DNA of 61,848 nt, filler included, from Sphacelaria rigidula (Eukaryota), in the NCBI GenBank assembly GCA_964200075.2. It is 10 parts of 10 records of this genome, joined end to end, with 100 filler letters (N's around TTAATTAATTAA, not from the genome) between each part and the next. Parts side by side here need not be neighbours in the genome. Positions count along the whole stretch, not along the records: positions 43,366 to 49,460 come from CAXNAA020022265.1; 9 more parts are not named here. One strand, written 5' to 3'. The translations under genes and the position numbers were made by a program. The notes under the pieces were generated by a model. It was not told the origin of the DNA and made no database searches. It was given only the letters and a program-made list of their open reading frames with translations. Position 1 is the stretch's first letter, and each line of letters opens with the position of its first letter. Shown in pieces: positions 2,291-59,820 of this stretch.

Positions 2291-5200
2291 ATCTGGCTGT
2301 TGCACCGGCTTGTGTGACCCAATTTTCATGAAAGTTTTCTTCATCCCCATTAATTTCATGTCGTAAAATCGGTTTCCGGGTTGGGAATTTTGATCACCCA
2401 TCTTCGAATCTGACATGTTCAATGCACAACATGGTCATTATCCACTCTTTTTACGTGCGTAAACGGGCGGGTCCGAGAAACCGGGCAGGCACGCGGTCAG
2501 AATAAGGAACCAGTAATCAGACGTGTGCATCTTGTGTCAGTCATCATCACCATTATTTTATCATCAAATATCGTAGATTGTACTGTAGAAAACATTTAAA
2601 ATCCAAACCGATTCACGACCCTAGTACACACGTTCTTCGATTCCTACGCGCCTGTCCGCAAAAATCATGGATAATAATCAGATCACTACGGGGGGGCGGA
2701 GGGGGGGGGGGCACGGGCACACATACACAATACACAGAAAAGCAGCTAAGAAACACCCTTATAACGCCGTCTTCGACCACCGTTCATCTGATATTGCCTT
2801 GTCCCCCCTCCCCCCTCCGCTTGTTGGGTTCTACTAACCTCCCTCCTCTTTGGTATGATTCGCTTCGCTTCCCGCGACGGTTCCACGCTGCCAAAACAAC
2901 GGAAACGATTCATCATCTAATAATATCGTATAGAACAACAGAGAACACTTGCGAGAAGGCTGGCAAGAGAACTCTAGTTTTCCCTATTTTCTTCTCCCTC
3001 TTCTTTATTGTTGCGCCACCTGCCAAGCCAGCCGAAACGATCATGATCGAAGCCTACCACAGCGAAAAAAAGTATCGTGCACCCTTCCTTTTCTATGACA
3101 CATTTCATTGTAAACTAACAAACCATCGCGAGGTCATACGACAGGGACCTGGGTCATATCGCCAGACTTCCCAAAATAAGGAAAGGGACACACTCACTGT
3201 TGACCAGCCTTCATCCACTGCACACGTTTGAACAGCAACAACACCGCCACGGAATTGTCGCAAAAACGTCATTAAGCACAGCACGCCACCGTGGCAAGGT
3301 ATATAGCATACAGGAGGGGCCATTACTCTCAACCTCGGCATATGCTGTCCCTTTCTCCCTCCCTCCTTTGCATTTCAACAGTTGGACCTGGTTGACTGTA
3401 CGCGGCAGTCAATAAATACTATTTTCCACGACGGAAGACACAAACGGGTATCAAGTAAGAAAACTAGTGCATCAATATCCAGATCCCCAAACGATGCAGC
3501 AAAAAATGCCCGCTGAATTGTGGTGCCCCCCCCCCCGCCCTTGCATCCATTTCGCGTAGTAAGTTCTTGTAACGAAGGCTATCTACCCTCAATCGTGTCA
3601 ACATGTTTGTTGCGTGAACTGCTTCCTGATTGACCCATTCATCTCCTTGTAGAGAAAGAAGTGTAGGAAATTTTCAAATTCCGCACCCCTCCTTTTTTTT
3701 TTTTGGCAAATTTGGTGCCTCTTTTACTCGCATACCCCCCCAAATAAATATGTACTCGGTATATATCTACGTCACTCGCCACACGCCCACACGACGAGCC
3801 AACATGAAAAAGACCTCGCAAGCACAGGATACAGACGCACTCGCTGCTGTTACACCATCCATCAGTCTATGTCAAACCCGTGGTCGTAATAATCATGCTT
3901 CCCTTCCTCCTCCCGGTCTCACTCAGATCACTGTGCCTCTTTTTCACTCTCCACCTTGGGATACCGTCGGAGAAAGTGGCACGTACATCTCTCGGCGTAA
4001 AAAAAGGCTGCACACATGTAACAACAGCAGCCTTCAACTCAGTAACTAAGAGCCGGAAAATACATGTATAAAAAGTGGCGATGACATGTCGAGACCCCAT
4101 AAAACACAGGACTCGTTGCGCGGACCAGTAAGGCGGTCGATTCTTTGCACAAGGTCTCTGTTTCGTTTTATTCTTGTTTCCCTGCCTAATGCAATAAGAT
4201 AGAGACGCGAAACGGCTATCGCGTGCTCTCAATATCATCAAACAACGCCCGTTCTCTCTCCCTCCCCCGCCGCCTCCAAACGAAATAAGCAACAACCGAG
4301 GAAGGACCACAGCATATGTACCTATATTATAAGGACTATCCAAATAAATGAGATCAAAGACGGGAGTCGTGTGCAAATGAATCAAGTCGGGATATTTTGT
4401 TCGAACAAGAAGCCCATGATCAAGGTGGCTAAGTGACCAGAGACATGTAACCTCCCCCCCCCCCCCCTCCCCCTACAACTGCACCTTAAAGACTTCCCAA
4501 GGGTGCCTCTAATCAGCCAGTTGGCTGTGTTTTTTCTCCAACATTTTCCGGAAGCATGACGAAATGAACCGGTTCGCGACCAAACATGTACACGAATAAA
4601 TCTCCGAACACAACACAGCAAACAGCACAGAAGCGAAAGAAAAAAAAAGCATCCTCTGTACCAGTCTGTACCGATCCCCTCCCACCCGCCGCCCCCCCAG
4701 AAAAACACTTGACAAGGAAAAAAAACGATCAAGAGAAAAAAGAGATGAAGAGAAAGAAAATATCACCATCAAAACAAATCAAAACAAAAACGCCACAAGT
4801 CAACTCGAGGTGGGGCCCCTCGACACAAAACAACACACATGTACAAACGTGAAACCAAGCACGCTCAGCCGGCAAGTAGCCAGGTGCAGAAAAGCCTAGT
4901 ATTCGATAGATTCCTCGAACCCCCATCGATTTTTCTACCGCAGAAAAGAACGGACAAGCAAACACCCTATGGGCGTCTCGTTCAAGCCGGTCCGGTCCTG
5001 CTGCGCAACGCGACAAGCCTGCGGGGATTGTCAAGATAACTGTCCCCGGGAGCAGTTGAAATACGAGAGGGCCGATCTCTCAGCTGAAACTCCAAGTGAC
5101 ACTTTGGCTGCGTATAAACCCGTCCCCACCTGGTTGACTGAGCAGACGCTCAGTTCGTGAATGTTCACGCCACGTTGCACTGAAAGAAGGGGGATAAGAG

Positions 5201-12114: not shown

Positions 12115-13074
12115 ATCATGAATATGGGTTTATTTCTAAACTCGGGCAATATACAAGTACTATAGTCAGGAGCTATCTCTTGAGAATTTATTTCTTTTGT
12201 TTGTATACAGGAAGGCTGCACATAACAGTGTTTTCGTGAGATTGAGAGTGGATGATACGATTGAGAGTGGCTTTGATCATTCGCTTTAAGNNNNNNNNNN
12301 NNNNNNNNNNNNNNNNNNNNNNNNNNNNNNNNNNTTAATTAATTAANNNNNNNNNNNNNNNNNNNNNNNNNNNNNNNNNNNNNNNNNNNNGTCGTGAAGC
12401 ACGAAACCAGTTCTAACGGCTTTTATGATCATGTTCTCCTTGCATTTTTTGGGCCGGGGGGGGGGGGGGGGGTTATCTCGGCAGCAGTCTGGGGTGAATG
12501 TGCCAGCCGGGGTCACACCGGAAAGAAGCGAGGTCACACACAGGAGTTTTTTGTTTCATAATCTCATACCATGGCGCACCCTGGATGATGGCGATAGATT
12601 ACATGGTCAAAAAGTGTACGTGCTGCGTACAGTATCGACTATTGCGTTTATTGCAATAGACAATAGATTCCACTTTGTACGCAGTACACACACCATTTTA
12701 TATATAATGTAATATTTGGTCACTATCTAGAGTGTATACCATGGATAATGACCAAATATTACAGGCGTCAAAAAGTGTACCGCGTCTGTTTTCGATACGG
12801 CCTCACCAAAATACCCCAAAGCTGAGGTGGGTAATGACAGGTCGTAAAAATGGTGGGGAAACAAGAAAACTGGTTGGGTGACTGCGTGCTGTAGCACGCA
12901 GGGAGAGTTTGTTCACAATCTTACCGGAACATCTACCGTGGAAATTTTCATTTTAGGCTTAGGTGACTCAACACCAACGCAGTAAGGCATGCGAAAAACG
13001 GTGTGTATACGTCCTTTCTCACCGCCAGCCTGCGAAAAAAGGGGCGGGGGAGGCGGGCGGGGGGCGGGGGGGGG

Positions 13075-13197
13075 GTACTCGTCTGGTGCCGCCTTATTGT
13101 AGTGGCTTTTAACCATTGACCACGCATCCCTTTCGAGATGGAGCACCGTTCCTAACCCTAATAGAGACACCTATTCGATATTTTGACGCTCATTTCG
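13075..13197 (-). mobile_element. 5'-truncated 3' end of the poly(C)-ended LINE family
   Basis: Matches 45301-45420; G-rich tracts on both flanks. Confidence 0.8.
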
Positions 13198-13754
13198 TAG
13201 GGAGGGGGAGGGGGAAGGGGAGATATATGTGAATGAGAGTACGGCCACATGCAGGGAGAAAATTCCCACAAAGTGTTTGTCGGGGATGAGAATCGCGGCG
13301 GAGAGGTGGCTACTATATTGAACTGATTTATTTCATCGAACGATCAAATATTTGGAAGTTTTGGAGGTACAATAAGCAGCAGTAAAGGAAACGCGCAGGA
13401 TGACGATGAATGAGCTCAAACGTTTGTACCGTGTGTGCGTTTTTTTTTTTCCCCTTTCCCTCCTATTTTTGTCCTTTTTCGGCCAGTAGTGTTGACCACT
13501 TGGTCGATTAGAACCTTCCCGGAATATTATTATTTAGTTTGAGTGTAAACACCGATATTCGGATCTTCAGCGGGGCTGACAGCCTCAACTGCCCCTCTCG
13601 TTTTCGTCAAAATTGGCGCCTTCGGCGTCGTTTTGAGGTCTGCCAATGCCACACTCTGTCCAGGGAACGCTCCACACACCCCTTGCCCGAGAATTCTCGG
13701 TATGCCTGGGGTTTGGGTTGGGGTTAGGGATAGCATTATTAAAAAATATATATG

Positions 13755-18585: not shown

Positions 18586-19619
18586 TTGCTCGTCACGTCG
18601 ACCATGCCCGCCAGGGCGTGTGCGGCGCAGACCTCCGCCTTCCTGCTGCCGGCTGCACCGTACGATGGAATTGTGGAGCAGCCCTCCTTGCTGCACCGCT
18701 TGCTTGTCACATCGACCATGCCCGCCGGGGCGTGTGTTGCGCAGAACTCTGCCTTCCTGCTACCGGCTGCACCAAAAGAAGGTTGAGTGGAGCAGCCCTC
18801 CTTGCTGCACCGCTTGCTCTTCACATGGGCCATGCCCGCTTGGGTGTGTACGGCGCAGAAATCCGCCTCCCTGCTACCGGCTGCACCGAATGACGGTATT
18901 GTGGAGCAGCCCACCTTGCCGCACCGCTTGTTCGCCACATGGACCATGTCCGCCAGGGCGTGTGCGGCGCAGAACTCCGCCTTCTTGCTACCGGCTGCAC
19001 CGAACGATGGTCGAGTGGAGCACCCCTCCTTGCTGCACCGCTTGCTCGTCACATCGACCATGCCCGCTCGTGCATGTGCGGCGCAGAACTTCGCCTCCCT
19101 GCTACCCCCTGCACCCAACGATGGAATTGTAGAGCAGCCCTCCTCACTACATCGCTTGTTCGCCACATCGACCATGCCCGCCAGGGCGTGTGCGGCGCAG
19201 AACTCCGCCTTCTTGCTACCGGCTGTACCGAACGATGGTCGAGTGGAGCAGCCCTCCTTGCTGCACCGCTTGTTCGTCACATGGACCATGCCCGCTGGGG
19301 CGTGTGCGGCGCAGAACTCTTCTTTCTTGCTACTGGCTGCACCGTACGATGGTAGTGTGGAGCAACCTTCCTCGCCGCACCGCTTGCTTCTCACATCGAC
19401 CATGCCCGCCAGGGCGTGTCCAGCGCAGAACTCTGCCTTCCTGCTACCGGCTGCACCGAACGATGGGTATTTGGAGCAGCCCTTCTTGCCGCACCACCTC
19501 ATATTCACATCGACCATTCCCGCCCGCGCATGTTTGGTGCAGAACTCTGCCTTCCTGCTATCCGCTATGCCCACTGATGCTTCCGTGGTGCAACTCGTGT
19601 GGATGCACATTCCAGGCAT
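18586..19619 (-). CDS. EsV-1-7 cysteine-rich repeat protein (3' end cut by contig end)
   Basis: At least 9 tandem 38-aa (114-nt) units MVDVxxKRCxxxGCSTxPSFGxAGSRKAEFCAAHAxAG (C-x4-C-x16-C-x2-H) with no stops; ATG at 19619, possible splice acceptor just upstream. Confidence 0.9.
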
Positions 19620-19924
19620 CCCCTTCACAACCGCACTACAGAAGGGACAAGGCCGCGGTAGTCCCCGCTGCCGCTGCTGCTGCTGCTACTGCTACTACGA
19701 TCCGCACCGTCACAGACTCGATCACGAGACCCGCTGACCAGTTCAGGAGCATCCTGCACCAATAAACCAGCAAGGAGAATCTTAGGGCGTGCTCATGTAA
19801 AAGATAGATGACCTGTCATCATTGTATATCGGTTGCATATCGGCCCGTGAGATAGAGTGAACTGACACATCAACCGTTGAGTTAGCAGGCGACAGAGATA
19901 AGCATTGCAGCACGGTCGGGGGGG

Positions 19925-19991
19925 CGTACTCGGTTGTTGCTTGCCCCAGTCGTTTGACCATTGACCACGCATCCCTTTCGAGACGGAGCAC
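19925..19991 (-). mobile_element. 67-nt 3' end of the poly(C)-ended LINE with a 15-bp TSD
   Basis: GCACGGTCGGGGGGG at 19910-19924 and 19992-20006 flanks the insert. Confidence 0.88.
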
Positions 19992-22900
19992 GCACGGTCG
20001 GGGGGGGGGGGCTCTTTCAATTAGGAGCGTAGTCTCGGTACGTGTTTTTGCAGGGCGGGGGGCACGACTGATGCAAAGGAAGGAGTGCCGAAGTCTGAAA
20101 AGATGCAAAAGAGTCTACAGTATCGAGGACGCTGGTATGGTTTCTCCACCCATTCGATTTACGTGACACACGACGCGCATGCGATCATTCTGTTCTCTGC
20201 ACCTCACATCGGAGTCACAGGCTGGATGAACCATCAGTACATGTCATTGATACCCCTCAACGTATAAACAATTGATGACGAAAGCCTGCACCAGGCAGAT
20301 GGTGATGTGGAGGTAGGCAGTAGACGCCGATTTATCACGTTTTCAGCGTACTGCCATGGAGACATCACCTCATCCTGTGTGGATGCACAAAGGGTGCTTT
20401 ACGCTAGGTATGGCGGCGACGGTTGTGCATACTACTGCACCCATCATACGGCACTAGCCAGGCAACATGATGATAGCCAGCTGTGCCTACATGAGTCACC
20501 CCTGTCACCACCTGCTAACAATCGGTGCCTCCCATATCTGGGGTACAGCAGGAATGACGCTGAGGGCAATGAAACATGTCTCGAAGATGAGTACACGGAG
20601 TTATCAGCGATGGTATATGTTACAAGAAAAAAACGAATTCGACAGTATTTCTCCTTGAGACTCCTGTACAATAAACCGGCATGGCGTGTTGAAGAAGGAG
20701 GCGTGTTGCCCAAAATCGAGAACGAAGCGATCATCGAATCAATTCATGGGCAGGATTTGATCTCAAAACATGATGATTTGAGCTACGTTTGGGGACACGC
20801 ACACGGAAGCTGCTACCTTGAGAAAGGAGGGACAGACGTCACCAACAGGTGGGGAACAAACTTACGCGTGAAGGCGGACCTTCGAAAACAGCTGTAGAAA
20901 CACGCAAATACGAACGTCATGACACAAAGGGCACAAAACGGCATAGCAGATTTCACGACATGAATAGATGTGCCGGAGGTACTTGGCTGACGGCTGAAGT
21001 GAGCTATGTAGTGGAAGTTTCAGCAAGATCATCCGAACCAAGCGAGGTTTTCGTTTTCCGGAGTGTGTTCCGCAGAATACTGATTTTTTTCCTGGTGTAC
21101 GCACAAATGCGCGAATCCACCATACTACGGACACGAAAACTCGTACGCACCGTTCACAATTGAAACCGTATCGCGGCAAATCTCTGTCGCCGTGTCGTGC
21201 GGTCTCGTAAAACTGATTATGTGCACTACGGAATGCCAGGCGGTGGATAACACATACCATACAGTGCAGATCTCGGTAAAGAACCCGTGCCTCACGATGA
21301 ACTCGCCTTAGAAGACGCGCGGCAATCGTACCATGTTTGCCCCCAGGTGCAAATGAGAAGTCAAACTGTGGTTTGATTTATCGCAATAACCATGTATATA
21401 TTCTTCAATGTCCTTGTTATTCAGGCGGTTGCCAATAATCCGACGACTAAGCAAAGGGTCGGTTAGTGACAGTCTTCCAGGAGCAGCAGATTTCGCAACC
21501 GTGTTGTACAACGCCGAAAACAGATGGCGCGTACGCCCGCCCACCGTGATACTTGAAATGGTTTACTTGGTGTGCGAAACAGCCGCCGCTGTACCGTCCG
21601 TTGTCCGTATTCATGTACTATACTGCCCCATCTGCACTGCAGCACTGCAGCACTGCACGCACCCTGCAGTATGCTGCTGTCGTGGTGCTGCATGCACGTA
21701 CTGAACAACTAGATGCGACGCTTATGGGTACTGGATGTACAGTTACACAGCGGCACTGGCTGCAATGTAGTGTTGCTGCATCGTACACTGTGCTGTCTGT
21801 ACTTCACGTGTGCAGCTGTATCCTTACATATGTTCTCTATCTGCACAGGTGGTCGCATCATGCTTGATGGAGGCGTTCTTGTGATCCTCTGCATCGACAA
21901 CATTCGATTTCTCCAACAGGTCACTTTTCTCAATAAGATGGAGGCGAAGAGAATCCATCAGGGGGAATCCCCGTTCGTAGTCGTTTTCTCTCTCTGAGAG
22001 GTCCTATAGGAACGGTTCGAGCAACATCTGAATCAAGCACCGGAACCTTTGTTTCTCGGAAATATGTTTTCGGGTCAGAGAAAGCGGGTTCGGAAGCGGC
22101 TGTTCGATCACTGCTTGTTTGCGTGTTTTGTCCTTGCATCTGACCACGGGTCTCAGCCAAGAGTATTCAAGTATCGAGTGAAAAGGAATACAAGTGCGCG
22201 AAGAAAACCGTGGACGTGCAAGGGGAAGTGGCTGGTGACGTGGCGGAGCTTGTGATTCGTACCTGGTTGAGCGTAAAAGCCTTTGCCGGAGAGTAACTTG
22301 TTCATGTTTCTAGGATTTCCGGCTCAGTGTAGTGACCGTAAAACCACTACAGGACGCGGTATTATTTGGTGATGGAAGAAGAGTCTGTTGCGTTCGGTGT
22401 GGTGTAGTGAGCCAAGCAACGCCGGTGTTTTGCGGATGATGTTCGCTATTTTCGGTCTTGGTTGATGTCGTGTGTATTCCTTCCTTGGTACATGAATGCT
22501 ACGGTAAGCGCATCGTTACTAACTTCTCTGTTTTGCCTTCAGTGCTGCACTTGGGAACGCGCACACGTGACGGCTGTCGGGGTCGCATTTCCCCTACTTC
22601 CTTTCCACGCCTACATAATTACAGTACCGTAGTTAACATCTGAAAGATGAGATTCCCCTAGCTTTTTCGTGGTGGGAGATATTGAAAAGTGTTTTTGCGT
22701 GCCACCGCTCATCCCAGTGAACGTTCGATCCAAACGTTTGGGGATCGGGAGATACCAAGAATTCTCTCCATATTCCAAACACAGATTTTTTATTTGTGCT
22801 CAGTTTTGAACGCCTCACGGGCCGACCGGTTTTCGGGGATCCTTATACTACTCAGCTCCAGGTTCTGACCCTGGAGCAATTTTGCTCGCTTGAAGCATTT

Positions 22901-23691: not shown

Positions 23692-24600
23692 CAAGGGTAG
23701 GTCGAGTAGAGTATGTACTTTCGAATACTCGAGTGAAATACTCAGGTACTTACTCTACTCGACGTTTGAGTAGGCCGAGTACGGCCTGAAAATACTCTAC
23801 TCAAATTTTGAGTACGTCGAGTACGGCCTCAAATTCTCTACTCAAAGGTCGAGTACGACCTCAAATACTCTACTCAAATATTGAGTAAGCACTCTCATTA
23901 CTACTAGAGTAAAGACTACCCCTGACCGTCGGCGACTTCGTGACGTCACTTCACACACCATGTTGAATGCATGGGCGAACGATGGCCATAAAAAAATCAA
24001 AAACGCGTGCAGGTGAATGAACCTACCTGCCCCAGCGCCCCATCTCACCAGCCCCCACCCACGGCTGTTCATACTCGATACCTCGCAACCCCTCCGGTAT
24101 TACTTTCAGTACAGAGCGCTACTCGTCATTATGGAGCAATCGAATAGACGAGTAGTCGAGTAGGCATTATCAAAATGAGCGACTCTACTGGCCAGATAGG
24201 TGACTCCTAAATGGTAGAGTCAGCGGTGGAAACAGTGCAAGACGGGAAAACATCGCAACAGTCGCCAGAGGAAGGAAGACGTTGAAGTTAGAGGTTTTGG
24301 TAAATCGGACCCGGCCTCCGATACTCTACTCAAATTTTGAGTTCGTCGAGTACGGCCTAAAATACCCTACTCAAATATTGAGTAAGCATTCTCAGTGATA
24401 CTTGAGTATAGAGTATCGCTTGAGTATGATCTCAATACTCTGCTCAAAGTTTGAGTACGTTGAGTACGGCCTCAAATACTCTACTCAAAGTTTGAGTACG
24501 TTGAGAACGACCTCAAATACTCTACTCAAACTTCGAGTACGAAAAGTATGACTCTTCGAAAATACTGAGTATTGAGTATACACTACTTGACCTACCCTTG
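23692..24600. mobile_element. MITE with ~27-bp TIRs (CAAGGGTAGGTCRAGTAG) and 41-bp palindromic subterminal tandem repeats
   Basis: TIRs at both ends; unit AAATACTCTACTCAAAKTTTGAGTACGTYGAGTACGGCCTC repeated at 23790-23890 and 24320-24541. Confidence 0.85.
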
Positions 24601-30413: not shown

Positions 30414-30805
30414 GTGAGAAGGCGTTTTCTTTGTTGTCACGGCTACACTACTCCACACTGCTGTACCGTCTGTCAGCCTCATGCATGCTTGAATATGACA
30501 CGTGAGGGAGGAGAAAAAACAGCACAACAAGAATAACACATGGACAAGTTCGGTTTTAAATTGTACTGACTGCTGTTTACAAGTAGGCCAGTGCGTGGCG
30601 TTTCAAGCATGTTGGAAACAGCAAGAACGAAAAGCTCGCGCTACACCTTCTGTCATTGAAAATCAGAAGTACCCTAAAAATGGAACGCGTACATATGTAC
30701 ACGTATACATGTAGAGAGGGAGAGAGAGATACGAAAAAGTGATGAGTCTTGGACAAGCACTTGTGTTATCCCCCCCCCCCTCCCCACGCTCCGTCCCCTC
30801 CCCAC

Positions 30806-30875
30806 GCTCCGTCTCGAAAGGGATGCGTGGTCAATGGTCAAACGACTAAGGCAAGCAACAAATGAGTACGCCCCC
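30806..30875 (+). mobile_element. 3' end of the poly(C)-ended LINE
   Basis: GCTCCGTCTCGAAAGGGATGCG...AAATGAGTACGCCCCCC, with C-runs on both sides. Confidence 0.85.
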
Positions 30876-31678: not shown

Positions 31679-31874
31679 TAATGCGGGGTGGCCAGAATGA
31701 TCATATTCCAAGGAGTGGTACATTCCAAGGTTGTGTTGTGTGAGGTACGGGGACGTTCTGTAGGGTATGAGATTCCTTACAGAACTTACAGAACCGTCGG
31801 TAACCGGTAACACTTTCTACGATAGCCCCCCCCCCAAAAGTGCATGGCTTTGGGAGGCAAAATCTTCACGTAAA

Positions 31875-43365: not shown

Positions 43366-43487
43366 CGGTTGACCATTGACCACGCATCCCTTTCGAGACG
43401 GAGCGAAGGGGGGAGGGGGGCGTACTCATTTGTTGCTTGCCTTAGTCATTTGACCATTGACCACGCATCCCTTTCGAGACGGAGCAC
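43366..43487 (-). mobile_element. Two head-to-tail LINE 3'-end copies joined by a G-run
   Basis: GACCATTGACCACGCATCCCTTTCGAGACGGAGC twice, separated by GAAGGGGGGAGGGGGGCGTACTC. Confidence 0.88.
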
Positions 43488-44463
43488 AAAACCCATGGGT
43501 TATGGGCCCCCAAGATAAGAAACTAACCTTTGGGATAGTTGATACTGTGTGGTATATGCTCTCAATGTAGACAAACAATCATACATTGGGATTCCGAACA
43601 AGTTGCGCATGTGAATTGAGGTATATATGCTGAGGGGTTGATAATCCTGATTATTTCTGGAGAATGACCGACGGCGGTAAAATATCTGCCTGAAAAGAAG
43701 GGGTGCTTGCGAAAACGAAAACTGAGGCAGAGTTGATCAAAACTCACGGTGAAGGAAACATAACCTGGCTGGTCGGGGATACGTAGCATGCTACCACGGC
43801 TGACACGAGTACAAAAGACTGTCGTGTGTGCGTGTTTCCACTGCCTTGTGTCGGGGGGGAAGGGAAGTGTGGTGATGGGTTTGTGGTTATGGCTGACGCG
43901 ACCAGCCAAAAAGCAACCACAAAATGCAGAATGGGCATTTTGTGTCCAAAATGTTCCTGGCGTGAGAACGCAACCCCCGTACCTCCCGGCTCAGTCGTCG
44001 TTGAATCATACATTTCGAACAATCACACACTCATCAGTTATCGAGGACAAGGGCGTGGCCTGAATGTTAAACGCTTCGAAGCCTCTCTGTCCAGGGGCTT
44101 GTCGGGGAACGAGGAAATAATTGAACAGCGAATACACCTGCTGTACGGTATAGCTATACAGTAGTCCACATTCTTCTTATCCGAGCGGTTTTGGAACCGT
44201 CAAGAGCCAGTTCGACGTGATGAGGACCGTTTCAAGACTCTCAGAACCGGCTGATGACACAGTAAGAAACGGTGCGACGTAGTGAGAATCGGTTCGACGT
44301 TCGTAACAAGAATGGGTTGGAGACTCCGAAAACTTGCTCCAGGCAGATACCGAGAAGAGTTTCGAGTGTGTTGACAGCTACACCCGAAAAACAAATCACG
44401 AGAGCATTTAAACGTCTTCCGTCTGCTTCCCCCCCCCCCCCCCATTTACATCCCGTAGCTCAC

Positions 44464-44562
44464 CGAGTTGAAGGTCAGCTTGAAGTTGAAGTGCCGCTGC
44501 ATCTCGAGCTTCTGATTCTCCGTCATGTTAAAGTCGCGCATGTACTCGGACAAATACTCCAC
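44464..44562 (-). CDS. CNBD-type cation channel, C-linker exon
   Basis: CAG|VEYLSEYMRDFNMTENQKLEMQRHFNFKLTFNS|GTGAGC; 99 nt, in phase with the 48337-48470 exon. Confidence 0.8.
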
Positions 44563-45300
44563 CTGCTTGTTTATAGATGGGTACATACACGGAAAGTAGA
44601 ACCATCAGCGGACGAAACACGGATTCTAGACGGGAATGCGACAGCGACGTGAACGCGTCCGCGTAAGCATGTGTCATTATGCACAACGAATATCTTCCCC
44701 CCTACCCCGCCCGCGCCCCCCTCCCGAGTATTTCGGTGCTAGCGACACTCAAAAGTCGTATCATTAGAAAGATATCGTCCAGATCTGTCCTATGCACAGG
44801 GGTAGTTCAGACCTATACAGGGTATTTCCCCGTCGAGAACGTCGACAGTGATACTGTATATATACACACACATGTACATCTCGCCGCGCCCCGGGTACTC
44901 CATTGGCAGTTGTGGGAGAGGATAAAGTGGTGAGTTCGAATCCCGACAGCTTGGCACGTGATTTACAAGGAACTCGTCGACATATGACGATCCCCAGTTT
45001 TGCGAAGAAGAATATCTTTGGTTGGTCGTGTCTCGTCACGAAAAAATCGGAGCGAAAAAATGAGTCCGGTATGAGCGTGTCGGCGAGTTCTTGCAAAGTT
45101 CTTGCAAAGTTCTTGTTGGTACTGCCTTCCGTCGTGTAAAGCGCGAGGGTGCAAGTGAACAAGAAATATGAAAGTGGAGTGGCTGCAAGAGTGCTGACCA
45201 AATTCTTAGTAACACATTGCAAGGAGGGTGCCGGGAGAGAGATGGCCTCGTCTGTCTTGAGAATCCGGAGTCATCCTGATCAGGGGGGGAAGGGGGGGGG

Positions 45301-47095
45301 CATACTCATTGGTTGCTTGCCTTAGTCGTTTGGCCGTTGACCCTGCATCCCTCTCGAGACGGAGCACCGTTCCTACTTCTAATAGAGGCACCTCCAACAT
45401 TTGCGCGCTCGTTCCGTTTCTTCCACAAAAACCTTGTACATATCTTATCCCCTTCCTATTTTGCCGTGTGTGGCCACCACCTATCTCCTAGTATAGCGAT
45501 CGATTTCTCGCTGCTGTCCAATGCATCAAACGACTTCATGCCACCTTTGTTTACTTCACACATTTCCCCCCTCTGACACGTCCCGTTCCTCCTTGTGTAC
45601 TATAATATACTTCACATTTCTGTCACTATATGAGTTCTGCTCTGTACTGCTTTGCCACAAGGGCAATTCTGTGCATCTACTTCCTCCTCGATACGACTAC
45701 TGGTATATCTCTTTCTCCTTTCCGGCAGGTCCAGGTCCCCTACCCGAAATCGCAGTTTTAGATTTTTCGTCGCGTCCATTGGGCCATACAGGTATGTTTT
45801 CATCCCCATCCCCTCTCTCAACCCCCCGTATATCTTCAGGTGTTTTTCCTCGTCTACTTTGCGTCTGAGCGCTTCTTTCCCCCTTATTTTTGTCATGTTT
45901 CTTAATTTTGTCTTGTACCCCGCACCTTCACCTATCGGCAGTATTTCGTCCTGGTTTCCTCCTATCTCCCTCCATACTTTCTCGACTTCTTTTATCCCAC
46001 CATATATTCCAGCCTGCCCTTTCGTAATTTCTTCCCTACGGCCCTATCAACTATGGCTGGCATTCCCGTCATGTTCATCACGCCATGTTGCCATCTGAAC
46101 TTTCGAAGTCTCTATTTGTTTGGAGTGGATACAGTCCCAACTCTGTTCTCAATGCTGTATTACTCATCGTTTTTGAGCATCCAAGTATTTTTTTAGCTGC
46201 TATCATCTGTTCTATTTCCAGCTTCTTCACCAACTTCGCGTTCCCCTCCCATACTCCTCCTGCATGTTCCAGCTTTGGTACAATCACGTTCATCAGACTA
46301 CATCTCTTTACCCTCGCATCTAGGTTCGAGTCTCTGAGAATCACGTCTATCTTGCTTACCTGTGTCTTACCCTTTTCTATAACTTTGATTATTTAGGCAC
46401 CCCAAGAACAGTTTTTTAAGATCAGTTTTTTAAGATCTCTACGCCAAGGTATGTGTACTGGTCTAGGGTCGGCACTATTCTTCTTCCCACTTCCATTTGA
46501 ACTCTACCGGGTTTTCCTCATCTCCGCTACATTCAAGTACCGCGCATTTGTTTGCGTTCGCTGTCACTCTCCGTTTCCTAGTGTACTCTAGCGCCTTCTC
46601 TATTCGCTGTGCAATCCTTCTGGCGTTTCTGATATCCTCACGACATCATCCGCGAACATCAATCCTGATACCGTACCCTCCCTTACCTTGACACCTTGCT
46701 TTGCTGTTTCCATTGCTATTATCAGGTCATTATTGTAGTAAATACTTGGAATAAAGTGGGCGATAAGGTACATCCTTGTGCAACTCCTTGTAAAATATCA
46801 ACACATTTCGATATTTTCCCGTCTAGCATCATCGCACTTTTCGCCCATTCTGTAATCTTCTACATCATTCCCCACACTGTCCCTCTGATCCCAGTTGCCC
46901 ACAACTTTTTCACAGCCCATTTCTCCACGCTGTGCCATAGGCCTTCTGTACGTCTAGCAATAGACAGCACGTTGTCAGCCCGGCATCTTTCCTATCTTGA
47001 ATAATCTCACCTAATGTGTACACATGATCTACGCAACTACGGTTTGGTCTAAAACCTGCTTTCCCCTGGCCGATTTTTTTCTTCCTTTTTAGCAT
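45301..47095 (-). mobile_element. 5'-truncated, decayed LINE (RT plus C-terminal Cys knuckle) in the channel intron; ends TGAGTATG+(C)n
   Basis: AGFRPNRSCVDH, LDVQKAY, GVAQGCTLSPTLF, MFADD, LRTELGLYPL, CPCG..SRTHIV..; the frame ends ..KASNQ* just before the C-run. Confidence 0.92.
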
Positions 47096-47612
47096 CAGGA
47101 GAAAGGGGAGGGCGGTGTAGTCGTAAGACCACCGACCTCGCGTCTCTACAAAGCCGGAACGTAGTACGGCGAACGTTTCGCCGGACCAGGCTGGCAATCA
47201 CCAACTGCACAGCGCCGTGATGCGTCCGGCGAGTCGCATGAGGGGTGAGTTAGCTGCACCCTACTAAGATGATTCGTCCCGAGGCGTACTAGTTATCTCA
47301 AATGGATAATAGCCTCGAATGAGTTGCTACATTGTCTGGTATTGCCTCTAGCAGAGAAAGCCACTGGCTACGCTGCCCCATGGGTGTCTCACCATGTGCA
47401 CACTACGAAGTACGATCACCCTCTTCGAGCGGAGTTGAGGTTCTCCACCCCGCACATCATGATCTGACTCGACCATCATCATAGTCCACCGCTAAAAACT
47501 GCAAGTGGGGGCCCCGGAAACCTGGTTGCCTAGCTTACGCAATGAGAGGCGTGTATTACAGGGTCCTTGCCCGCCGACGCGAACCCTCAATGATGAGGGG
47601 TAGTAGATGAGG

Positions 47613-47783
47613 CGGGGGGGGGGGGGGTCAATAGTATGTCGAAAAAATGGATAGGCAAAGACAACCCGTATATAATTGGGCGCCTGATCTCGCCCACCCC
47701 CCTGGCTAANNNNNNNNNNGGGCCAGATGAGCAGAGGGGGGGGGTGTATTGGGGTGTGCCCCCCCGCCACGCCAAACCGAAAA

Positions 47784-47822
<39 letters not shown>

Positions 47823-47903
47823 CAATAGTATGTCGAAAAAATGGATAGGCAAGTACAACACGTATATACTTGGCGTACTGATCTCGCTCACTCCCTTGGC
47901 TAA
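47613..47903. repeat. Two ~85-bp direct repeats, each preceded by a long G-run
   Basis: (G)n-TCAATAGTATGTCGAAAAAATGGATAGGCAA...TGGCTAA at ~47627-47709 and 47821-47903; a 10-N gap lies between them. Confidence 0.75.
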
Positions 47904-48336
47904 TGCGCAAGTGATCCCCGTCACAGAAGGAGGTACCCAGATCGGCTTCGATCGGGTAGAGAAGGAGAACGAACATACCGACAAGCACGCCATCAACGAT
48001 TGGCGCGCACTCTAATGTTACTCAAGGCTGCAAGAAAAGAAAAACACAGACAAAATGTTACAAGACTGCAAGAAAAGAAAAACTCAGAGATACTACCGGT
48101 AAAAGCAAGTTGCAGAGCAGGCACGAGCGGAGACATTACCTGATTCCGAAGGAGGACTCGTCGCGAGGGGCTGACGGAGAACGTACAGGTATCATGAACG
48201 GAAAAAAGAAATGCGGGGGTCGAGGGTTGAGATCCCCCTTGGTGTTGTCTACGAAATACAACTAATAGGACCGTTCAGTCACCTTTTGATACCACAATAG
48301 CAGAATATGAAGAAGGCTACGATGTGGAAAGCGTAC

Positions 48337-48470
48337 CTGCTGCTTCTGCAGTCGATGCTGTGGGTCGAGGTTGAGCACAATGCTGACGAGAGCGCCGATC
48401 ACATACGCGAACAGCGTGGTTCCCGCAACCTCGCTGATCAATGCCGTCATCATCTCACTCACGTTGTTGG
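48337..48470 (-). CDS. CNBD-type (KCNH/HCN/CNG-like) cation channel, S6 exon
   Basis: AAG|xNNVSEMMTALISEVAGTTLFAYVIGALVSIVLNLDPQHRLQKQQ|GTACGC, typical of post-pore S6 and the C-linker start. Confidence 0.82.
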
Positions 48471-51400
48471 CTTGTTGTTGTTGTTGTTGTTGTTGTTATT
48501 GTTGATTTGGCCGGGGTTGGAGGGAAAGGGGGGACAAGTGCGGGTCACGAAACAGTAAGAACTAAAGCAGATGCGCGCAGTATATCGTGATTTATCACAA
48601 CAGGGATACAGTACCGACCGAGTCTCGGCGCGGGCTGTAGCGGATGAAAACTATAATATAACATGTTTGTACGCCGTGGTTTCCCTTAATTTTTACAAAT
48701 GTGGTTTACTTCTGAGAGGTCTTTCCTGTTGCGATGACGGGTGAGCTGACCTCACGTGTATTCAGGAACTCGTGGCGATTTTGTACTCGAAGGGTGCACA
48801 TCTTATGATGATTCCTGTAATGAATGAGTGCGATCTGAAGAGATGGTTGCTTGCGCAGGATTTTGCTGCTGGTTCGAATTCGCAGCGTGGTGACCGTTTT
48901 CCAAAATCGGACCGAAGGACAACAAAGCATTTGTTTGTCTTCACAAAACCGCAATGCTGCGGCCCCCGACGACGTAGTGGCGAATACATGCAGCCAGTTA
49001 GCGCTTCGGGAACCACCTCGTAAGAGTGAGGGAGTACTTTTTCGCCAGAAGTATATGTCGAGGGTACCAGAATGTGTCGCTAGCACATTGCCAACACTGA
49101 CCGGTGAGAGCTACTCCAATACCAGTAACAACAGCAAGAGACTCACGGATCCGATTCCTGCCCCAGTCACCGCGGTAATGCAACAAAAATAAATCCGAGA
49201 AGATAGTTCTGTGTCAGGTCGGGGGGTCGGGGGGACGGAGGTGGGAAGGACTTGCATCGGTGCGCATATCCTTTCTTTCTCGACACTTTCGACGATAGCC
49301 CCCCCCCTCCCACCCCCCCCCAAAGGTGCCCTGGTGAAACACCCACGAGGCAGTGTATAAGCTATGGCTGTCTTTGGAAGTGGCGATACCAGAAAATAAA
49401 GCAACTCATTGTAGGCTGTCATCCAAATGCAAGATAATCAATAGGCTTTGGGCCGAACAANNNNNNNNNNNNNNNNNNNNNNNNNNNNNNNNNNNNNNNN
49501 NNNNTTAATTAATTAANNNNNNNNNNNNNNNNNNNNNNNNNNNNNNNNNNNNNNNNNNNNATACAGGACGGTGCGTATGTACGTCCGGAATGCTTCAATG
49601 CGTATATCCGTTTCACATGACATCGGCACAGCGCAAGTGCTGGAATGCGCATGTTGGCGAAAATGCCCTGGCTTATTTTTGCTTTGTAGTATCTAGTCCT
49701 GAACCGAGCATTCGATCGAAACTGCAACTTGCCAGCCGCGATGTTTACATATTGTTGTTAGTGTACACAGGCAGCAGTGACGACATCATGACTGCTGCTA
49801 TTAGCCCGTGGAATGCGGTATACAGAAGATAGTCAAAACCGCTCTTCACACGTGGCTTCCTGCGCTTTATTCGTCCGATGTACGCCCAGGCGACTTCCAT
49901 GTGTGACGGGTACTTGCTGTTGTAACGCGAAGTTGCTTTGCACAGCAACACAGAGTAGCTTCTAATCGATGTACACAGGCAGTAGACAGCAACTTTCTTC
50001 GATTGTCGTTGGTGTACAGACGCAATGTACAAATATCTCGCCTGCCCAGTCTCATATTTTCCTTCTGTTATCTTGTTACTAATCCACACAGACAGCAGTG
50101 ACAGCAAACGTCATGGCTGTCTTCGGTCTTTCAAAGGCAGTGCATCGAACATAGAAAATATCGCGCTTGAGGCTCTGGCTTGTGCGCTCGACAGCGCAGA
50201 GACAACACAGCCGATCTTGATCAGAGCAAACTATATGGCTCGTGGTACTTTATGTTGGGAGAATAAATTGCCCCTCGTACACAAGCGCATACAAGATATC
50301 AGCACCACATGACAGGACAGTAGATACAAACACATAACCTTCAAAACGAAGTTTGTCCCGTGTTGCATTGTTCACATTTTGTTAATAGTATTCACAGTCA
50401 GTTACGGAATACATCATTGCTGTCTCCCGACTGTGAAAGGACCAAAGGACCGCAATAACAATTGGGCGCACCGGCTTAGCTTCTGCGCTGGACCCAACAC
50501 TCTTGACATGAAACAGACGCGTCAAACTTTTCGGTGACCGCGTTGAGCCTTTCGGCGGCAGCCTTGAGTTCTTCTTCAGCCTTCTCCGCGCGTTGACGCG
50601 CCGCCTTGACCTTGCGCGCGGCTGCCAAGGCACAGGATAAGTCTTGACCGGTTTTCTCCTTGTACTTCGTCCATGTTGCGCGGGAGTCCGTTTTGTTTTT
50701 GAGTTTCGAAACACCAAGCTTTTGAGAATTCCGCATTTTTCACCTCGACACACGCTGCTGTTCCTGAAGCCGCAAGTGCGGATTTTTCAAAGCGGATATC
50801 TCGGCAAAAAGCAGAGGATTGGAGGGCGGTTTGATGCGTGCACTTCCCACACACCAGAACGTTTCGGAGCCAACATGGCTTGCCGTAACGCGTGCCGCGG
50901 AGCCCGCAGCACTCTGCAAACCGCCCAAAATATACGAAAAACGCGTTCTCTTCGACGTTCGGGGGCGTTTCGGATCCGCTGTGGGGAATTGAGCAAACCC
51001 GTTTTGGCGCTGAATATATCTAGTGTGTGCGCGGGGGGCTGTCAAGTGCCACAGGCCGGTTTGCTTTCTGCTTCGAGAATTACGCGATGAAAAAATTACA
51101 GCTGTCGCATACTAAACGTAGGTAACTTGGGGTGAAGCGTATGTTCTGTTCGGCACAGGTTCGGCACAGGTTCGACCAGTCAATGACGTCTGCAATACGT
51201 CTTCAGTATCCCTCCGCGTTCGTATTTTTTTCAGTTGACCACGGAATTTTGGTCGGTAAGGCCTTCATTCACCCCCATAACATTTACTTCACACTTGCAC
51301 TGCTGTGTAGATGCCTGCCGAAGCAGCGGTCTAACTCACAGGTATAAACCTGTGAGGGAACTCTGTGGTGAGCCGAGCTCTCGCAGACTTCATGGTTTTG

Positions 51401-57217: not shown

Positions 57218-57861
57218 TCAGAGCGGTCAATTACGCTAGCGGAAGAGTTACCGCCGGTGCAGAAGGGTTTGAGATTGAAGAGAGTTTGAGCAAGAGGAGA
57301 GTTTGAGTCGACTTGAGAGAGTTTGAGCAAGAGCAGAGTTTGAGTCGAGGGTTATTTGAGAGAGAGATGTGAAGGTGTTCAGGTTTGAGTACAGGTTGAG
57401 CAGGTTGACAATTTGACTAGGTTTTGATGGGGAAAAGAATCAACACCCCACAATGGAAGAGCAAGTGGGATTTCTGACTGAACAGATGAACAGGATGCAG
57501 CAGACAATTAGCAACACACCGGTGATGCCTGCTAGTACAGAACAGCAAGCACCGTTCCACATCCCTCACACCCCCAATTCCCATCGCATTCGTAGCAACA
57601 AAAGCATCCTAGCTTGGGACGAAAAAGCTGCCACATCTACCAATGTCAGGGATAGGTTCGAGGTGTTCAACATCCAGATGTGTGCCTATTTTAAAGATGA
57701 AAACTGCTATGACGCTTTGCTAGTTGAAAACCCCATCAGGGTACACCGTGGAAATGAGGAAGGTTTTCGAGCAAGTTTTGGAAACGAAGCAATCGACAAA
57801 GCCAAAAGGGCCATGAGGATAATACTCGATAAAGTAACATTTCCCCCTTTGGTAAGGCATA

Positions 57862-57871
57862 TGAGTACGCT
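57862..57871 (+). mobile_element. 10-nt micro-insertion (TGAGTACGCT) matching the LINE 3' terminus, with a 19-bp TSD
   Basis: CCCCCYTTGGTAAGGCATA at 57843-57861 and 57872-57890; removing the 29 nt restores the gag frame. Confidence 0.75.
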
Positions 57872-59820
57872 CCCCCCTTGGTAAGGCATATCGATATGCT
57901 TGCGAACCCAAGTCAAGCATGGAATTATATCGTCCGGTACTACAGGATTCCAGCAGCTACAGAAAAAACCAAATTGGAACACGACTGGCAAACGCTGCAG
58001 ATGGCTGACGGTGAATTGCCGATGAACGTTCTCTCTCGGGCCCAGTTTATTCGTAAGACGTGCGAAGAATTCGATGTCGTTTTCTCGGACTGTGAAGCGA
58101 ACAGGCATATGGTTGATGCCTTTCATCAGAGTACGAGCACGAGCGTAGGAATATACTAACACTACGAGAGATAAGCATGGATGAGGGAACCCGCCGCCAG
58201 CTAGGAAACGCGTATGCAGAAGCGCAATTGTTGGAAGAAAGGCAGAGAATAACCTTGAACCGTGCACTTTCCGCTTCTAGTACTGGTGGAAGGGGCAATG
58301 GCTCACCTGGCAAAAGGCAGAACGGGGGGAACCGCAGATCCCACAATCCGCAAAACCAACACAACCATCACATCCCTCCAAACCCACACCAATCCAACTT
58401 ACATACTCGCCATGGTCCACAGCGACACATCAGCAGTGGTCATGGTGGTCGAGGGAGGTGGCATTCCCCGAGACAACAGCCATGGCGACCAAACAGTCCG
58501 TGGAGTCATTCGGGACCAGGCCGTGGTAGGGTTCACCAACCTAGTCAACGAACCCACCAAATTCGTGGCCCTTTTAATTGTCCCAATTGCCCTCCTCGCC
58601 AGTACCACGCGCAGCATACCAACGTCCAGCAACCCCCGATTCCCCAGCAATTTCAACCAACATACACAGGCCCAGATCACTACCGTTCCTCAGGTAATCA
58701 GGGCCCATCACACCACCAACAACAGTCCAACCACATAACCAACCATACACCACCACAATCCCATTACCCGCATCCACAACACCAAATCCACGAACATCCA
58801 CCACAAGCCAACACCGATCAGCAGACTGATCCCGCCTACCAGCACCATGAGAGCGTTGATAACTTTGTCTATGAGGACAATGCTTTCAACGATACCGGTT
58901 TTGCCCATACAGTCCAACATCATACATCCCAACATCAACTGCAGCCGCAACCTACCACCATCACGGAACACCTCCCCCACTACACACCACCTCCATCATC
59001 CAATCACCATCAGCCACAGTCTTCAGAACACAATCAATCCCAATACCATTCCTCGTCAACCGCACCACAAACCTATCGCTCATCACAGCTACCACCGCCA
59101 GACCACTCCCACCATGATCTTTCCTCCGCTGCACCACCACCACCATACTCGTCACTCTACCACGAGCCATCCGACATATATTCCCATCCGGTAAACCCCC
59201 ACCACACGTCCACTGCCGATCTTCCGCTTGCTGATAACCCTGGTGGTAGTGTGTACATGGCACTCTCTGCCGTACCAGAGAAGTCAGTCTTTAGTTTGGG
59301 TAATTTCGATATGGAGGGTAGGATGTTGCATCAGATGGAATCTCTGCCCCTTTCTGATTCAGAATTGTGGATTGCAGACTCATGTACAGTGCACCACATC
59401 ACGGGCAACATGACCGACGTTTTCGATACTCGTCCTCCACCAGTGGGGGAAGAGAATGTCATTCTAGGGGGTGGTAAAATCCTCTCGGTTAAGGCTGTAG
59501 GGAGTCTCAAGTCGAACTTTCATCAAGCACCTGCGAACAACTCCCCCCATGATGATTCAGTGTGTGTACTGCTGACGGATGTGTGTGTTTTGGAGGGAAC
59601 TCAGTCCAACCTATTCTCTATCCACAGGGCTCAAGAGAGCCAAGAAGCCATCTGCGATAAAGTAGGTAGGTGTGCATCTAACGGCAGACTACGGTTCGAC
59701 TACAACGACCGTACATCATCACAATTCGCCACACGCCTGCCATCAACCTACGGACAGCTTCGAGTAGTCACTCCTGTTGCCGCCACTGAGAGTGACACTA
59801 CATCCATCCCACAACAAGCT

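Follow-up and report, generated by a model that had tools for sequence, protein, structure and literature searches.

A LINE family of the brown alga Sphacelaria rigidula ends in a C-run and probably inserts at C/G-runs

The window analyzed here is a stretch of 61,848 nucleotides from the brown alga Sphacelaria rigidula (GenBank assembly GCA_964200075.2), composed of ten pieces of approximately 6095 nt, between which stand 100-nt spacers made up of N and TTAATTAATTAA. The piece at positions 43366–49460 contains a decayed, 5′-truncated long interspersed nuclear element (LINE) on the minus strand (copy C, 45301–47097), which runs from the middle of the reverse transcriptase (RT) domain to the stop codon and ends in …AATGAGTATG. 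Its terminal sequence reads …GCAAGCAACCAATGAGTATG, followed by C9TTC7, and its 5′ boundary lies between 47087 and 47097, within the RT domain. Frameshifts and stops break the frame into at least seven open reading frame (ORF) fragments, in which we identified the RT motifs …GFRPNRSCVDH… and …FADD… and, later, a CPCG…H…C motif. A Pfam search with seven ORF fragments of copy C gave a sub-threshold match to RVT_1 in one of them and nothing else.

The frame of copy C stops 5 nt short of the end of the element (…TGA GTATG), and a C-run follows immediately. With up to three mismatches allowed, the terminus GCAAGCAACMAATGAGTAYG has four matches in the window (19925, 30851, 43421, and 45301), where dinucleotide shuffles lead one to expect 0.01. 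A blastn comparison of the long copy with the window added a diverged copy (13059–13172) and a partial unit (43366–43404). The 3′ ends are followed by C9TTC7 at 45301 (copy C), C6TC6 at 43421 (copy D), C7 at 19925 (copy A), C5 at 30870 (copy F, where the run is then cut by the end of the piece), C10GC6… at 13076 (copy E), and CTC6 at 57869 (copy B). The initial annotation of this DNA had described a LINE without poly(A) and with essentially no 3′ untranslated region (UTR), of which every visible 3′ end adjoins a C-run. The C-run is found at all six termini in the window, and the first part of the description is borne out by a TGA stop codon 5 nt from the end at the six window sites and at all four external loci described below. 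The same terminus had been assigned to every site, which requires some qualification: the C-run end is present throughout, but the site at 57862 holds the last 7 nt (GAGTACG) only, and the terminus at 13075 is GAGTAC plus the C-run. The first copy at 43366 is indeed cut, but by the boundary of a piece and not by the start of a contig; since the edges at 30875 and 43366 are both piece boundaries, features there are cut by sampling and not by biology. The heptamer GAGTAYG occurs 30 times in the window, and five of these occurrences have at least five C's within 2 nt after them, all five being LINE termini. Arrays of 32–42-nt units at 23751–24541 are also built from GAGTACG and its near-complement (…CTCAAATACTCTACTCAAAG…); they have the heptamer in common with the LINE terminus, but no C-runs after it.

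Two insertions are bounded by clean target-site duplications (TSDs) that begin with the C-run (copy A at 19910–20011 and copy B at 57843–57891). Copy A, on the minus strand, is a solo 67-nt 3′-terminal unit (19925–19991) comprising the last 19 codons and the stop, then GTACG. It lies between a 5′ TSD of C12 + GACCGTGC (19992–20011) and a 3′ TSD of C7 + GACCGTGC (19910–19924). Copy B, on the plus strand, is an extreme 5′ truncation, in which the insertion consists of GAGTACG only (57863–57869). Its 5′ TSD (57843–57862) is C5 TTTGGTAAGGCATAT, the flank reading C5TTTGGTAAGGCATAT, and its 3′ TSD (57870–57891) is CTC6 TTGGTAAGGCATAT (CTC6TTGGTAAGGCATAT); the 5′ TSD contains the 14 nt TTGGTAAGGCATAT without a single change. 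As the TSDs of both copies start with the C-run, the run was present in the target before insertion, in agreement with the original proposal that the family targets G/C homopolymers. The arrangement of both copies is the one expected if the bottom strand were nicked at or inside the G-run and the G-run served as primer, and copy A is consistent with a nick inside the C12 run after which seven G's remain for priming. The 5′ flanks point in the same direction. A run of at least five C's lies within 25 nt upstream of four of the seven 5′ junctions (A, B, D′, and E), and one of at least four C's upstream of six of the seven, compared to base rates of 2.4 and 7.0%, respectively, at random positions of the window; the binomial probabilities of these excesses are about 1e-5 and 1e-6.

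The remaining copies have less regular surroundings. Copies C and E have C-rich strings on both sides and no clean repeat. Directly 3′ of copy C is C9TTC7TGAT (45279–45300, minus strand), the C-run with a candidate 3′ TSD, and directly 5′ is a degenerate candidate 5′ TSD, CCCTCCCCTTTCTCCTGAT (47094–47112, minus strand). Copy E is a diverged 121-nt 3′ fragment on the minus strand (13076–13196), 74% identical to copy C and ending in GAGTA. It is followed by the tract C10GC6GCCCGCCTC5GCCCC (13040–13075) and preceded by a C-rich flank, …CTCCCCTTCCCCCTCCCCCTCCCTAC (13197–13225). Copy D is a solo 67-nt unit on the minus strand (43421–43487) and the upstream member of a head-to-tail pair, separated by the linker C6TC6TTC (43405–43420) from the second unit D′ (43366–43404, minus strand), the one cut by the piece boundary. 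Copy F, on the plus strand, comprises a 65-nt unit and C5 (30806–30875). Its 5′ flank (30770–30805) contains C11 and then an exact 18-nt tandem duplication, CCCCTCCCCACGCTCCGT, that spans the 5′ junction at 30777–30813; because the unit's first 7 nt are part of it, the duplication arose after or during the insertion.

The encoded protein could be followed in intact relatives. A search with a 143-aa fragment retrieved 14 relatives, including the full-length proteins P0005 (1360 aa) and P0010 (1328 aa) as well as a protein of S. rigidula itself. The full-length relatives carry Exo_endo_phos/Exo_endo_phos_2 and RVT_1 on one chain (Exo_endo_phos at 170–392 and RVT_1 at 740–989 of a single 1359–1360-aa ORF), and their C-terminus is …NGAPSRKGCVVNGQMTKASNK. 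This ending is the exact translation of the 67-nt unit up to TGA, and the frame first assigned to the LINE end is therefore correct: …NGQMTKASNK* of the intact relatives matches the terminal codons, and GTACG is all that separates the stop from the C-run. At the DNA level the intact relatives read …GCA AGC AAC AAA TGA, then GTACG, then a C-run, and poly(A) is absent. A 5259-nt contig of a metagenome-assembled genome (L005) has an intact 1359-aa ORF, 88% identical to P0005, and copy C is 77% identical to this element over 1818 alignment columns. The 1067 nt upstream of the ORF in L005 contain no run of five or more C's and, as best match to the 3′ flank, a G-rich string (11 of 12 positions), so that the 5′ end of the element probably lies beyond the contig. 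The best explanation of these data is an element of at least 5.2 kb encoding one protein of approximately 1360 aa with an N-terminal apurinic/apyrimidinic (AP)-type endonuclease, an RT, and a C-terminal Cys/His motif. Among named relatives, proteins of Ectocarpus come closest, at 60, 48, and, over 56% of the query, 72% identity; one of them, P0017, has a C-terminal peptide identical to that of the query family. Two further observations concern these relatives. The first approximately 170 residues of P0005 (1–170; L005 3680–4192) form an N-terminal region before the endonuclease that has no Pfam match. About 600 nt upstream of the intact ORF, L005 contains, as read on its minus strand, an inverted, degenerate look-alike of the 3′ module (4740–4800) with 13 exact bases of GGTGCTCCGTCTC reverse-complemented, which could represent an ancient fragment of a related element in inverted orientation.

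Outside the window, exact-pattern scans identified three metagenome loci and one locus in a genome collection, and a scan of viral contigs gave 0 matches. The terminus is followed by a C-run at all four external loci (C8, C10, CCTC7TCCTCCC, and C13), and the sequences beyond the run are mutually unrelated (best local scores 10–16, a handful of matching bases). This excludes, for these four copies, that a full consensus continues past the C-run into a poly(A) 3′ UTR, an outcome the initial annotation had asked to be checked. A search of G001 with a 76-nt unit found the L005 copy only, the other four matches having E-values of at least 0.3.

Among sequencing runs, five, from two studies, contain part of 44900–47300; one of them is labeled 'algae metagenome'. 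Four runs (X1, X3, X4, and X5) were aligned to 19600–21600 at 90% likeness, and 26382, 11154, 19776, and 3620 contigs were matched per run, almost entirely on the 67-nt unit; being derived from Logan contigs, these figures yield neither copy numbers nor RNA ends. To the left of 19949, the loose-end consensus on the plus strand is GGGGGGCGTACTCATTTGTTGCTTGCCTTG (99, 81, 104, and 24 contigs), that is, the terminus and a G6 run, corresponding to a C-run after the terminus in the sense of the element. At 19948 a further consensus (111, 84, and 107 contigs) differs in its terminal sequence, which is again followed by the run. On the right-hand side, the unit passes into the LINE body in 599, 394, 539, and 168 contigs, and at 19988–19990 a G-rich continuation (C-rich sequence 5′ of the unit) is found in 476 contigs of X1, 397 of X3, 465 of X4, and 101 of X5, with an agreement of just 0.40–0.44. 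All of these figures refer to the loose ends listed, beyond which 417 further ones exist. Joints that go back 70–72 nt, from 19990 to 19917–19921, with as little as GGG between the two sides, show head-to-tail units linked by a C-run, like the pair at 43366–43487. The joints listed derive from other copies of the repeat, aligned at 90% likeness, and no contig joining across an empty site of copy A was seen in the four runs.

As the ORF stops just 5 nt short of the terminus of the element, the last ~67–100 nt, which are coding, would also be the 3′ module that the enzyme must recognize. The last ~100 nt are 91–94% identical among five copies, compared to 70–84% in most upstream bins, with the proviso that two upstream bins also reach 90–91% and that in four of the sequences the search pattern itself prescribed the last 21 nt. 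Relatives of approximately 40–46% identity (proteins P0018–P0043) keep the C-terminal …GCVVNG..AMAA. peptide, and the terminal ~15 codons seem to be conserved far beyond this LINE family, possibly at the RNA level. In the predicted RNA fold, the first six bases of the unit pair with GAGUAC at its end, and this closing helix encloses two hairpins. The four short units (A, D, D′, and F) all start within 2 nt of one base, and contig breaks cluster at 19988–19991. We infer that the coding stretch doubles as a recognition element for the RT, and that reverse transcription often stops, or switches template, at the 5′ edge of the module.

The shared start of the short units, together with the hundreds of contigs per run that break at the same few positions, would also suit a different origin, namely that the 67-nt units are a separate minimal non-autonomous element, or a tail shared in the manner of a short interspersed nuclear element (SINE), mobilized in trans by the LINE. 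There is a parallel in Ectocarpus, where the elements RTEX-N1 and RTEX-N2, as far as they are described in the part of the survey used here, share only ~60–100 bp of their 3′ end (PMC12477816). However, copy A is bounded by TSDs and contains 67 nt only, the sequence of the unit is that of the coding end of the LINE itself, and truncation has occurred at other points as well, as the lengths of B (7 nt), E (121 nt), and C (1.8 kb) show. We therefore regard a separate element as a serious possibility, albeit one that falls short of even odds. The insertion mechanism is alike whether the units are truncated LINE copies or a non-autonomous element.

Membership of the RTE-X clade is decided by the grouping of the RT domain with RTEX references, in a phylogeny or in an RTclass-type classification. 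Several hallmarks of RTE-X are seen in the window family: a single ORF with an N-terminal AP-type endonuclease followed by the RT, no poly(A), and a very short 3′ UTR. A sequence search of the PDB returned L1 ORF2p and R2 at similar E-values, and the protein atlas returned generic endonuclease-RT (EN-RT) clusters with no informative taxa; neither resolves the clade. The Ectocarpus relatives were classed as RTE-X by best blastp matches to RTEX-4_NV and RTEX-1_BF (PMC12477816), with which the RTE/RTEX guess of the initial annotation agrees. According to this 2025 transposon survey, in the parts that we draw on, the Ectocarpus genome has seven RTE-X families with 16,418 copies (3.41% of the genome), and RTEX-N1 is the most abundant of them and has its 3′ end in common with autonomous RTE-X elements (PMC12477816). 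A figure of 4100 intact RTE-X copies is reported for Ectocarpus. The supplementary table lists RTEX-1_Ec32 (5867 bp, best blastp RTEX-4_NV) as 'single EN-RT ORF; (C)n 3′' with a 'C-rich' TSD, RTEX-2_Ec32 as '(C)n termini/TSD', RTEX-N1 as 'can be present in tandem' and '60 bp 3′ end 83% RTEX-1/RTEX-2', and RTEX-N2 with a length of 188 bp (PMC12477816). The main text of the survey does not contain the word 'C-rich' and does not discuss the mechanism (PMC12477816).

The window family thus resembles, trait by trait, the group of RTEX-1/2_Ec32 and RTEX-N1/N2_Ec32 as listed there, with a single EN-RT ORF, a (C)n 3′ terminus, and C-rich TSDs (clean for A and B, degenerate for C and E). Short relatives with about 60 bp of common 3′ end and tandem copies in Ectocarpus have their counterpart in 67-nt units at four sites and the head-to-tail pair at 43366–43487. 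The lengths are also similar, with 5.5–5.9 kb in Ectocarpus compared to at least 5.15 kb seen in L005, and the Ectocarpus proteins are 60–72% identical and have the C-terminal peptide in common. The differences are that the genome is another one, that across the full RT region the top match among Ectocarpus proteins reaches 60% identity, and that solo 67-nt units are prominent in the window family. The novelty implied by the initial annotation does not stand, since '(C)n 3′' ends and 'C-rich' TSDs had already been recorded for RTE-X LINEs of Ectocarpus (PMC12477816).

Taken together, we consider it probable (roughly 70%) that these are copies of a brown-algal RTE-X LINE whose insertion at C/G-runs proceeds by target-primed reverse transcription, with the G-run of the target priming on a C-run carried by a read-through RNA. 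The endonuclease would nick the bottom strand inside a G-run or at its edge, and the exposed 3′ G-run would pair with the C-run at the 3′ end of the RNA; the simplest source of this RNA run would be transcription that continues past the element into the C-run of the preceding insertion. Synthesis of cDNA would then begin exactly at …GUACG, and a cut of the top strand about 8–15 nt downstream would generate a TSD beginning with C's. As each insertion duplicates its C-run, a new landing site is left behind, and such duplicated sites would explain the tandem units; the abundance of solo units would follow if reverse transcription very often ended at the 5′ edge of the 67-nt module.

To our knowledge, the 3′ ends of LINEs are almost always A-rich or short microsatellites. 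L1 performs target-primed reverse transcription on T-runs and leaves 5′-truncated copies with variable TSDs of 15–20 nt. The window family is similar to L1 in that a homopolymer at the 3′ end of the RNA would be mirrored at the start of the TSD, in its 5′ truncation, and in its variable TSDs. It differs in that the run is C/G and not A/T, in that the L1 run is made by polyadenylation, and in that the RT belongs to another clade, though the PDB matches to L1 ORF2p and R2 are about equal. A poly(A) LINE of the L1 type was rejected as an identification, since no A-run follows any copy and the TSDs start with C's. Waldo, Mino, Kibi/Koshi, and SART/TRAS of the R1 clade insert into simple or telomere repeats, at one fixed register, and in these repeat-specific LINEs the downstream repeat on a read-through RNA sets the start of reverse transcription. 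Their targets are di- to pentanucleotide repeats and their clade is another one, which makes the analogy a functional one only, and we know of no homopolymer C/G target among them. Pairing has been proposed for the sister clade, RTE. In the portion of their study relied on here, Nishiyama and Ohshima (2018, PMC6007223) report agreement between the base repeated in the 3′ microsatellite and the one with which the TSD begins, and propose RNA-guided choice of the cleavage site and/or base pairing at initiation, while noting that base pairing is not required for some LINEs. RTE LINEs and their SINEs, as described there, share with the window family the lack of poly(A), the very short 3′ UTR, the identity of the 3′ repeat base and the first TSD base, the proposed pairing between RNA end and nicked strand, and the 3′ tail of the LINE carried by SINEs (PMC6007223). 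Their ends are (GGTTTT)n or (CAA)n, with an overlap of one or two bases and a T-stretch about 10 nt upstream of the cut (PMC6007223), whereas the repeat of the window family is a C homopolymer and the whole run lies within the TSD. A search of the literature on poly-C or C-rich tails or homopolymer targets of non-LTR elements, and on brown-algal LINEs, found no paper on a mechanism and no simple-repeat-specific LINE with a homopolymer C/G target; the feature itself was recorded only in the supplementary table of PMC12477816.

Several observations weigh against the explanation preferred here. Clean TSDs number only two, and unit D is an exception in having a 5′ flank without a C-run. In the long copy C, the possible degenerate TSD noted in the initial annotation stands as far as degenerate C-rich strings are present on both sides, but the local alignment covers 16 of 21 positions with one 2-nt gap, and it is weak because both C/T-rich strings are of low complexity. 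In L005, no 5′ end or TSD can be recognized in the 1067 nt upstream of the ORF. The lengths of the C-runs in the TSD pairs (12 at the 5′ side vs 7 at the 3′ side in A, 5 vs 1 + 6 in B) do not favor templating by the RNA. None of the five runs that contain part of 44900–47300 is on record as RNA, so that the C-run on the RNA is deduced from DNA. With regard to the module, the z-scores of the fold are only −2.4 and −0.9, and no compensatory change was found in its 21 pairs among nine sequences, which makes the fold a suggestion only. Finally, the RTE-X assignment derives from the published class of Ectocarpus relatives of 60–72% identity and not from a tree of our own.

In a rival scheme, the enzyme recognizes and nicks G/C-runs, the RNA ends in …GAGUACG without C's, no pairing takes place (as in R2Bm), and the adjoining C's all come from the target. 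The C-run is indeed present in both copies of the TSD, and since the 3′ run of copy A (C7) is shorter than its 5′ run (C12), no RNA-derived addition is needed there; base pairing is, moreover, dispensable for some LINEs (PMC6007223, in the part cited above). On the other hand, copy B has more C's at its 3′ side (CTC6) than at its 5′ side (C5), and the exact start of the cDNA at …GTACG in all copies is easier to understand if a flanking C-run on the RNA sets the register. A C-run follows every source copy, so that a read-through RNA would carry one in any case. Targeting by the endonuclease without pairing is for these reasons unlikely, though it deserves to be kept in view beside priming by the G-run.

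A true added tail, with C's added to the RNA post-transcriptionally or untemplated G's added by the RT to the nick, would need no run in the target. It would account for a C-run on all copies whatever lies beyond, and for run lengths that vary from 5 to 13 or more. But C-runs also occur in the 5′ TSDs of A and B and in the 5′ flanks of E and D′, and the 5′ flanks are C-rich across thousands of contigs, where a tail made at insertion would be found 3′ only; we consider this explanation very improbable. Sequencing is prone to errors in homopolymers, and in two copies the cut falls directly behind the run, but four matches to the terminus compared to 0.01 expected from shuffles, an identical end in four independent assemblies and four runs, and unrelated flanks past the run make chance, an assembly artefact, or an internal C-run with a normal poly(A) 3′ UTR beyond it hardly conceivable.

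A stronger form of the preferred reading, priming by the G-run, would see the brown-algal RTE-X LINEs as obligate homopolymer hunters, for which the 67-nt module and the read-through C-run are the whole requirement in cis. The nicked G-run would then prime as the only known C/G counterpart of A/T priming in L1, and the targets, the tandem arrays, and a sizeable share of the genome's excess of G/C homopolymers would be of the family's own making. We hold this to be doubtful. That the family seeds homopolymers is plausible because each insertion duplicates its run, but the idea that it could be the seed of the many G/C homopolymers of this genome is not upheld in the window, where just 6 of the 37 C/G runs of at least 7 nt lie in recognizable copies or their TSDs.

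Other repeats in the window were recorded alongside the LINE. On the minus strand at 47614–47903, two copies of a unit ending in …TTTTTTCGACATACTATTGA are 87% identical over 82 nt and are followed by C14 and C35, respectively. This 82-nt repeat, ending in …ACTATTGA plus a C-run, was considered as a second C-tailed family, but it may also have arisen by duplication in the assembly, since a 10-N gap lies between the two copies. A 25-nt string on the plus strand (…ACGATAG + C9–10, then AAA(A/G)GTGC) is common to 31810–31835 and 49283–49321 and is another repeat boundary at a C-run, the match being too short for interpretation or classification. At the start of a piece, a 114-nt tandem repeat (18586–19560) has 8.6 copies with 82% matches.

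Judging from the sequences compared here, the window family is likely a further member of the lineage catalogued in Ectocarpus, and a mechanism of priming by the G-run would be an uncommon one. Because the descriptive features are already present in the curated library, in the entries cited (PMC12477816), the value of the present analysis lies in the mechanism and not in the discovery of a family. A LINE lineage that uses a C homopolymer would be a natural test of whether the target of target-primed reverse transcription is chosen by the endonuclease or by pairing between primer and template. For the annotation of brown-algal genomes it is relevant that the 67-nt unit is found on tens of thousands of contigs and that assemblies tend to break at its C/G runs. 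If the LINEs were indeed homopolymer hunters, each insertion would duplicate its landing site, and the family would in this way build its own targets and arrays.

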